Shown here: positions 17,056 to 17,654 of the stretch, in pieces
Position numbering within the stretch: position 1 is the first letter of the stretch
How the letters are laid out: every line of letters starts with the position of its first letter
Source of the DNA: Geobacteraceae bacterium
Lineage (GTDB): Bacteria; Desulfobacterota; Desulfuromonadia; Geobacterales; Pseudopelobacteraceae
NCBI GenBank assembly: GCA_032469775.1
Contig: JAWDJY010000003.1
Location: forward strand, 41,262 to 73,261
Length of the DNA stretch: 32,000 nucleotides
Direction of reading: 5' to 3'
Notes under the pieces: generated by a model
Seen by the model: only the letters and a program-made list of their open reading frames with translations
Told to the model about the DNA's origin: nothing
Database searches by the model: none
Made by a program: the position numbers and the translations under genes

Positions 17056-17457
17056 ATGGAATGTAAAACCATGAAACAGATCAGGTTGACAATACTTGAA
17101 AGAAACTTTGCCAGAACTGACTGGATGTATGATTTCGAAGGCTCCGGCTTTCAGAGCTTTTATGAAACCTTGGCCAAAGATATGAACAAAATGGGCGTTG
17201 ACCTTGAACTTGTCTGGAACCGGAATGCGACAATTACGATCAACAGTTATGCTGATCTGTTGAATGTAGTAAAGCTTTCTGCTCTTGATGAGGGTCATAA
17301 CAATCATTGTATCGGACATATTATCGGCAAAAGCCAGAACCTGGATATCCAGGAAGATATCAGGATCGCTGTACGCCGCATCGCCTTTGCTCCGGAAACG
17401 ATAGCTCCTTCAGGGGAGTTTCGCAAGGTGTGCCATAACTGCGGTTGCGGTTGCTGA
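17056..17457 (+). CDS. Hypothetical small protein (133 aa) with a C-terminal Cys cluster CHNCGCGC
   Basis: ATG 17056 has SD GGAGG (17043-17047). The ORF ends ...FRKVCHNCGCGC*. The CxxCGC arrangement equals the high-affinity metal site at the N-terminus of E. coli HypB (MCTTCGCG). It lies directly upstream of hgcA. Confidence 0.65.
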   Translation: MECKTMKQIRLTILERNFARTDWMYDFEGSGFQSFYETLAKDMNKMGVDLELVWNRNATITINSYADLLNVVKLSALDEGHNNHCIGHIIGKSQNLDIQEDIRIAVRRIAFAPETIAPSGEFRKVCHNCGCGC

Positions 17458-17654
17458 GACATGCACGTTCTGCTGGATGTGTTGCTCTTATGCAAAAGAT
17501 AGAGGCCGGCTGTGATCGCCAGGACGGAGCCCTCATGGCAGACAACTTGTGTGAACAGGATAAAGCTAGAATCGACGAACCCCCATGCTGAGGCCCTAAA
17601 ACTCCCGCGGTCAGTGGGGAAATAAACGAGGGTGTCCCCGGCTTCAGCTGCTGG

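Follow-up and report, generated by a model that had tools for sequence, protein, structure and literature searches.

HgcA was described from sequence as a selenoprotein in 2022: according to Haft & Gwadz (bioRxiv 10.1101/2022.07.06.499078), selenocysteine (Sec) is present in most members of the family, in a PCUGP motif within an N-terminal extension. All of the 20 genes that they examined extend to 363–400 amino acids through one UGA, and the Sec machinery is encoded in all 20 species examined. The extension of GSU1440 from G. sulfurreducens was given as MSQPGPDVDRPPCUGPKTPAVSGTINENVPGFLRWLDTPAGR (bioRxiv 10.1101/2022.07.06.499078). HgcA (NF040863, CU) is also listed among the prokaryotic selenoproteins in a 2026 selenoproteome review, and a 2024 PNAS paper on HgcAB states that the homologs "may be selenoproteins." In our literature search, no report was found in which selenium incorporation into HgcA was shown experimentally. 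An adjacent Cys–Sec dyad, presumed to be a soft-metal ligand, is shared by other CU-motif selenoproteins with ties to metals or organometals, SaoL, SaoB, and SaoC of the SAO locus and rare Sec-containing forms of MerT (listed by Haft & Gwadz), but the folds of these proteins are unrelated to HgcA, and the dyad is placed differently (C-terminal in SaoL and SaoC).

Here, the hgcA gene in a 32,000-nucleotide stretch of DNA from a Geobacteraceae metagenome-assembled genome (MAG), hereafter the window, was compared with these systems. The initial annotation of the locus had proposed two readings of an in-frame TGA upstream of hgcA, a Sec-containing N-terminal extension or an 18-codon leader ORF, and had held that neither was described for hgcA; given the 2022 report, the latter statement was wrong. 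The window gene resembles the Sec-form HgcA of Haft & Gwadz (NF040863; GSU1440 and P. mercurii DND132_1056) in having one UGA ahead of the start that was annotated earlier, the PCUGP motif, a GPKTPAVSG.IN..VPGF..W segment near-identical to that of GSU1440, a predicted length (370 amino acids) within the reported range, and an adjacent hgcB whose product ends in CC. There is no essential difference, and the window holds one more unannotated member of this group. The present analysis goes slightly beyond the earlier work: a recoding hairpin is documented, whereas neither a hairpin nor a SECIS sequence is given for HgcA in the main text of Haft & Gwadz; the closest Cys forms lack this hairpin; and the PCUGP motif, which was called "perfectly conserved," is found here with the variants RCUPP and ACUGP. 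We put the probability that the window hgcA is a selenoprotein gene, with TGA 17589–17591 read as Sec to give a 370-residue product, at about 0.9.

The predicted extended hgcA gene

The features of the locus are listed in Table 1. By direct reading, the only stop in the hgcA frame between 17439 and 17654 is the TGA codon, which lies in a PPC-TGA-GP motif (17580–17597). No ATG, GTG, or TTG occurs in frame between this TGA and ATG 17655, the remaining two frames close within a few codons after the TGA (CCC TAA and ...AAA TAA), and a purine-rich Shine–Dalgarno sequence is absent from ATG 17655. On rereading, the initial annotation proved correct in all coordinates of the open frame, the upstream start with its GGAG, and the closed frames. 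The read-through peptide, with a Cys beside the TGA position, is likewise as it had been claimed: MADNLCEQDKARIDEPPC-U-GPKTPAVSGEINEGVPGFSCW-MESV....

Table 1. Features of the hgcA locus in the window.
Feature	Position	Strand	Remarks
Shine–Dalgarno-like GGAG	17526..17529	+	5 nt ahead of ATG 17535; direct reading
Full-length hgcA CDS (predicted)	17535..18647	+	370 codons; codon 19 TGA, predicted Sec; stop TGA 18645–18647
Cys18–Sec19 dyad (TGC TGA) in PPC-U-GP (predicted)	17586..17591	+	C-TGA in relatives, CC in long forms
SECIS-like hairpin UCCCGC-GGUCA-GUGGGG	17603..17619	+	stem from 11 nt after UGA, apical loop 17 nt after
VPGFSCW, conserved anchor motif of the extension (VPGF..W)	17634..17654	+	invariant alignment columns; translation
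330-residue ORF, hgcA of the gene callers (truncated call)	17655..18647	+	gene calls
Cap-helix motif NVWCAAGK	17910..17933	+	contains the cobalt-ligating Cys, Cys129 in 370-residue numbering
hgcB, 96-residue 2x[4Fe-4S] ferredoxin	18644..18934	+	4-nt overlap with hgcA stop

The downstream ORF is a true HgcA, as its score against NCBIfam NF040863 is 410 bits (cutoff 275). The cap-helix sequence fits the HgcA pattern N(V/I)WCA(A/G)GK, in which the Cys ligates cobalt (PMC11588087). In an AlphaFold model of the Cys-form homolog P0044, which is 56% identical and stood in for the window protein, five long helices were found at residues 236–383; the window protein aligns there, in agreement with the five C-terminal transmembrane helices of HgcA. 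The neighboring HgcB scored 124 bits against NF040864 (cutoff 99) and ends in ...SGCC. A Sec form of HgcB was ruled out, as residue 73 is a Cys. When the window was searched for other ORFs split by a single TGA, no further selenoprotein gene was found; a minus-strand candidate at 3–1352 is the shadow of plus-strand ACT and periplasmic-binding-protein genes.

The Met 18 codons before the TGA is common to the window and the related loci L001, L002, L064, L065, and L066. L064 has no in-frame ATG farther upstream, and the upstream gene of L001 stops only ~30 nt before the ATG of the extension, so a long leader would not fit in the latter genome. TGA is an ordinary stop elsewhere and ends hgcA itself at 18645; recoding at 17589–17591 would therefore be site-specific. 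A second Cys at residue 6 (17550–17552; L/V-C-x-x-D-K) is also present in the nearest relatives L001, L064, L065, and L066 and is missing from L002, L067, L068, and L069.

The gene call in the window (P0001) has 330 residues, and the NCBI entry from a Geobacteraceae bacterium MAG with the identical gene (P0003) is annotated with 323 residues from an internal codon (MAVISGEL...). P0003 and a second protein of the same NCBI MAG, P0121, are 100% identical to the window products. Annotation of the short form alone, by gene callers and in the NCBI MAG record, would suit a leader ORF. In such a reading, the TGA is a true stop, the 18 codons MADNLCEQDKARIDEPPC form a leader with a regulatory role, and the 330-residue product of ATG 17655 is the sole form of HgcA. 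The good Shine–Dalgarno sequence at ATG 17535 points the same way to the extent that the short ORF would certainly be translated up to the UGA.

Exchange of TGA and Cys codons among relatives

In a scan of one genome per species, 61 hgcA loci were collected, and the upstream sequence was translated in the hgcA frame with one TGA allowed. C-TGA was found at the homologous site in 10 of them. Seven further loci (L063–L069), fetched via exact-protein look-ups of short-form homologs, all have C-TGA-GP at the corresponding place, giving 17 related loci. The closest relatives, L001, L002, and L003, have PPC-TGA-GP with the TGA at the same codon as in the window, and the flanking peptide is kept on both sides, as illustrated by the extensions of the window (MADNLCEQDKARIDEPPC-TGA-GPKTPAVSGEINEGVPGFSCWM), L001 (MNDSVCNLDKPGLDTPPC-TGA-GPKNPAVSGIVDEKVPGFSTWM), and L002 (MEMVSENPEKPGLDAPPC-TGA-GPKTPAVSGVINEHVPGFKRWM). 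The TGA form is also found in MAGs of Coriobacteriia (L041, L048, L050, and L052; APC-TGA-GP or DAC-TGA-GP) and of deltaproteobacteria (L022, L030, and L044; RC-TGA-PP). The Cys form occurs in Geobacteraceae (L004 and L005; APCCGP), and several Bacillota loci have CCC or CSCS clusters.

The variant Sec sites of the form R-C-U-P-P (L022, 5881; L030, 515; L044, 5866) precede, by 120–138 nt, the region that tblastn matched to the 330-residue HgcA of the window. Each of these three loci contributes a GC-rich hairpin of its own, again offset by +10 to +12.

Among the best 120 matches of a protein search with the read-through product, ~60 have 308–346 residues and cover 80–93% of the query, and ~60 have 376–407 residues and cover 89–98%. 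About half of these best 120 database matches are thus N-terminally truncated, like P0003 and P0001. All of the 35 long forms that were fetched have CC at the TGA position, mostly as PPCCGP. In an alignment of 36 sequences (A7), the invariant columns are C18, C19, G20, V34, P35, G36, F37, and W40. The Cys-form proteins with a CC extension (L004, L005, and P0044–P0114, and those of Bacillota with CCC or CSCS) are homologous to the window protein and share the PPC-C/U-GP...VPGF..W architecture; they differ in having TGC or TGT in place of the UGA and in their N-terminal leaders, which are often longer with extra CC pairs, and L004 and L005 also lack the hairpin at +11. Three proteins of intermediate length (P0010, P0013, and P0106; 340–346 residues) start within the conserved peptide that follows the TGA, which is what gene callers halting at the TGA would produce.

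Over the 40 extension codons, the substitutions at the first, second, and third codon positions number 13, 8, and 21 between the window and L001 and 9, 10, and 21 between the window and L002. The third-position excess, about twofold over either other position, is the signature expected of coding sequence on both sides of the TGA. The segment 17535–17654 is conserved as protein, and in the orthologs the aligned codon is a TGA or specifies Cys, both as the Sec-containing extension proposed in the initial annotation had predicted.

These observations argue against a leader ORF. A leader peptide or upstream ORF should show a real stop in relatives with noncoding sequence after it; instead, the 21 post-TGA codons are conserved as protein with an invariant VPGF..W in the Cys forms, and homologs bear a Cys at the stop position and are read straight through. 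The presumed start of the short form is not general either, since the position equivalent to 17655 is occupied by Leu or Lys instead of Met in L003, L065, L069, and GSU1440. Together with the missing Shine–Dalgarno sequence at ATG 17655 and a hairpin that stands at SECIS distance in the TGA forms and is lost from the closest Cys forms, as described below, they make the leader ORF extremely improbable, and translation through the TGA is the preferred reading.

The SECIS-like hairpin downstream of the TGA

The hairpin that the initial annotation had placed 11 nt after the TGA is present in both the minimum free energy and centroid folds of the intergenic RNA. It is a perfect 6-bp helix, with four G-C and two G-U pairs as previously stated. 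The hairpin exceeds chance: only 1.6% of the same-size windows inside the window hgcA fold equally well.

A hairpin of 6–7 bp with its 5′ base 10–12 nt past the UGA was found in all 17 distinct TGA sequences. The stem sequences vary between clades with complementarity retained (5′/3′ arms: UCCCGC/GUGGGG, AUCCUGC/GCGGGAU, CUCCGC/GCGGAG, CCUUGC/GCAAGG, CGCUGC/GCAGCG, and GCGCCGC/GCGGCGC). Because the stems encode differing peptides (PAVSG, SAGGG, LPGSK, and PPGA), the conserved feature is the RNA helix. The apical loops all contain G (GGUCA, CGGCG or GGC, GGU, CGGGC, CGGGU, CGGGCA, and CGUGCA).

For the comparison across clades, the hairpins alone were aligned with the length difference put in the loop (17 TGA sequences and 12 distinct hairpins). 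In this alignment, 97.2% of the stem cells pair, versus 36–72% with slid partners, and two-sided (compensatory) changes occur in four of the six pairs. The covariation score was reached by none of 500 shuffles, although the hairpin ends for this count were picked from predicted folds, which biases it upward in favor of structure. An ungapped alignment across clades, covering the 40 nt that follow the TGA, was discarded; it gave only 71% pairing, as loop length shifts the register between clades. In the closest clade alone, the pairing amounts to 88.6% over 10 sequences; two pairs are compensatory, and nine of the sequences share the GGUCA loop. The stem of this clade is mostly invariant and also encodes PAVSG, so protein constraint could account for part of its conservation; the different peptides encoded by the cross-clade stems disfavor this explanation. 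Conservation of the hairpin with compensatory changes, on which the initial annotation had made its proposal depend, is thus borne out.

The hairpin also distinguishes the TGA forms from the Cys forms. When the hairpin fold was ranked against every same-size window within each hgcA, the median background rank was 0.019 for 11 TGA loci versus 0.41 for the Cys loci (Mann–Whitney p = 0.004). In L004 and L005, which have a Cys in the same peptide context, the sequence at the hairpin position folds with only −1.5 kcal/mol, and the hairpin is absent.

The E. coli fdhF minimal SECIS, reportedly described by Liu et al. in 1998 (cited in PMC4607533), shares with the window a short hairpin immediately 3′ of the UGA within the ORF, a stem beginning ~11 nt on, a 17-nt stem-loop, and GGUC in the apical loop. 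The window stem differs in lacking the bulged U of fdhF, and its sequence is unrelated. The bulged U in the upper stem is peculiar to E. coli fdhF and is not general to bacterial SECIS elements. The UGA-to-apical-loop distance in the window falls inside the 16–37 nt range of bacterial SECIS elements (PMC10778597), and a hairpin of 5–6 bp a few nucleotides past the UGA is the common bacterial form and has been likened to the minimal fdhF element (PMC4607533). As a SECIS-like element, hairpin 17603–17619 would bind SelB.

Searches of Rfam with the whole window (gathering thresholds) and with 17400–17760 (E ≤ 10) gave no SECIS or riboswitch family and only two chance-level hits. A covariance model (R1) of the four closest hairpins was significant only for its own four sequences and was rejected as a detector because it is too sequence-specific.

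Proposed mechanism of Sec insertion and possible role of the Cys–Sec dyad

The Sec reading of TGA 17589–17591 rests on the Sec/Cys exchange among homologs, the coding conservation on both sides, and the covarying hairpin that all TGA forms have and the closest Cys forms lack. In bacterial Sec decoding, SelB-GTP delivers Sec-tRNA(Sec) to the ribosome. In the mechanism that we propose, translation would initiate at ATG 17535, and when the ribosome reaches the UGA, the downstream hairpin with its G-rich loop would work as a bacterial SECIS. The loop would recruit SelB-GTP-Sec-tRNA(Sec), and Sec would be inserted in competition with RF2 termination. The product would be the 370-residue HgcA carrying the Cys18–Sec19 dyad (PPCUGP). 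Both the SelB dependence and the actual insertion of selenium are what we infer from established bacterial Sec decoding. No sel genes were found in the 32-kb window, whose ORFs were scanned against Pfam and NCBIfam, or among the called genes of the 48-kb metagenome contig on which it lies (Logan SRR11292469), and the window has no tRNA genes.

The P0044 model gives a view of where the dyad may lie. Its mean pLDDT is 75, with values below 50 at residues 1–7 and 18–41, including the CC dyad at 34–35, and of 74–91 from about the VPGF..W segment onward, just ahead of the first β-strands of the corrinoid domain. The CU dyad may thus sit on a flexible tether, with the invariant VPGF..W segment as its anchor on the corrinoid domain. 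Hg(II), or the product CH3Hg+, would be bound by the thiolate and selenolate together and carried toward or away from the methyl-cobalamin site, and the arm may cooperate with the C-terminal CC of HgcB. A flexible Hg-binding arm fits the low pLDDT of the dyad region in the model.

Recombinant HgcA from ND132 (P. mercurii), N-terminally His-tagged and described as "full-length," supported Hg methylation in E. coli lysate, and the Sec-containing extension is not mentioned in that report (PMC11588087). As methylation was supported by an HgcA apparently without the Sec extension, the dyad is probably not strictly essential for catalysis, and the arm is probably an enhancer or specificity element that is not strictly required for the chemistry.

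Such an HgcA leaves room for a reading in which two products are made: Sec insertion would give 370 residues when selenium is available, and termination at the UGA followed by reinitiation at ATG 17655 would give a selenium-independent form of 330 residues. The codon equivalent to 17655, which follows the conserved Trp, is Met in seven of 11 distinct TGA forms versus one of 35 Cys forms, where it is nearly always Leu. This enrichment may hint at an internal start, or it may be a single inherited change, as the Met-bearing sequences belong to one closely related clade. Moreover, ATG 17655 lies 63 nt after the UGA and, as noted, lacks a Shine–Dalgarno sequence, and we regard dual products as very unlikely. 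The idea that the UGA and the SECIS form a selenium-dependent switch on HgcA output is likewise very unlikely. With selenium present, the Cys–Sec form of 370 residues would be made; with selenium absent, translation would stop after 18 codons, followed by either no HgcA or, through reinitiation at ATG 17655, a dyad-less form of 330 residues. If this were true, selenium supply would directly set the amount or kind of mercury methylase made. The 370-residue selenoprotein remains the reading that we favor for the window gene.

Genomic context of hgcAB

Two conserved genes without an assigned function lie just upstream of hgcA, at 16526–17032 and 17014–17457 (likely true start ATG 17056), and their products have no Pfam or NCBIfam match. 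The latter encodes a protein of 133 residues with an invariant C-terminus, AFAPET.AP..EFRKVCHNCGCGC. It has ~1,950 homologs, all annotated as hypothetical, and where a taxon is named, it is Geobacter, Oryzomonas, or a Desulfuromonadales-type MAG. Its C-terminal KVCHNCGCGC raised the idea of an hgc accessory or Hg-binding partner, which was rejected because Geobacter sp. FeAm09 and Oryzomonas sagensis carry the same M29–orf167–orf133 block ahead of DUF815 and HDOD genes, and no hgcAB was found in the 5 kb downstream. The two genes are linked to the M29 peptidase gene and not to hgcAB.

Comparison of 15417–20721 with L001, L002, L070, and L071 places hgcAB within a conserved backbone, M29–orf167–orf133–X–HDOD–UbiA, in which slot X is occupied by hgcAB in the window, whereas Geobacter sp. 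FeAm09 and Oryzomonas sagensis have a DUF815 ATPase gene there. The flanking genes are 84–93% identical to those of L001 and L002, whereas HgcA is only 59–66% identical. This difference suggests that hgcAB was inserted or replaced, or is evolving fast, at this spot. The gap between the orf133 homolog and the extended hgcA is ~850 nt in L002 (5028–5880), 77 nt in the window, and ~30 nt in L001.

Significance for mercury methylation

No new principle emerges from the window: the known pattern is confirmed in another lineage of Geobacteraceae, and the recoding hairpin is documented together with its absence from the closest Cys forms. The Sec form of HgcA was proposed from sequence in 2022 and has been built into the annotation pipeline of NCBI, but HgcA is still shortened to 330 or 323 residues by metagenome gene callers and in the matching MAG record of GenBank. 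Where such shortened calls underlie environmental hgcA surveys or structural or biochemical studies, the dyad is left out. The product of HgcA, methylmercury, is a neurotoxin that accumulates in food webs. An N-terminal Cys–Sec dyad would be a very high-affinity ligand for Hg(II), and its presence in HgcA would tie selenium biology directly to mercury methylation.
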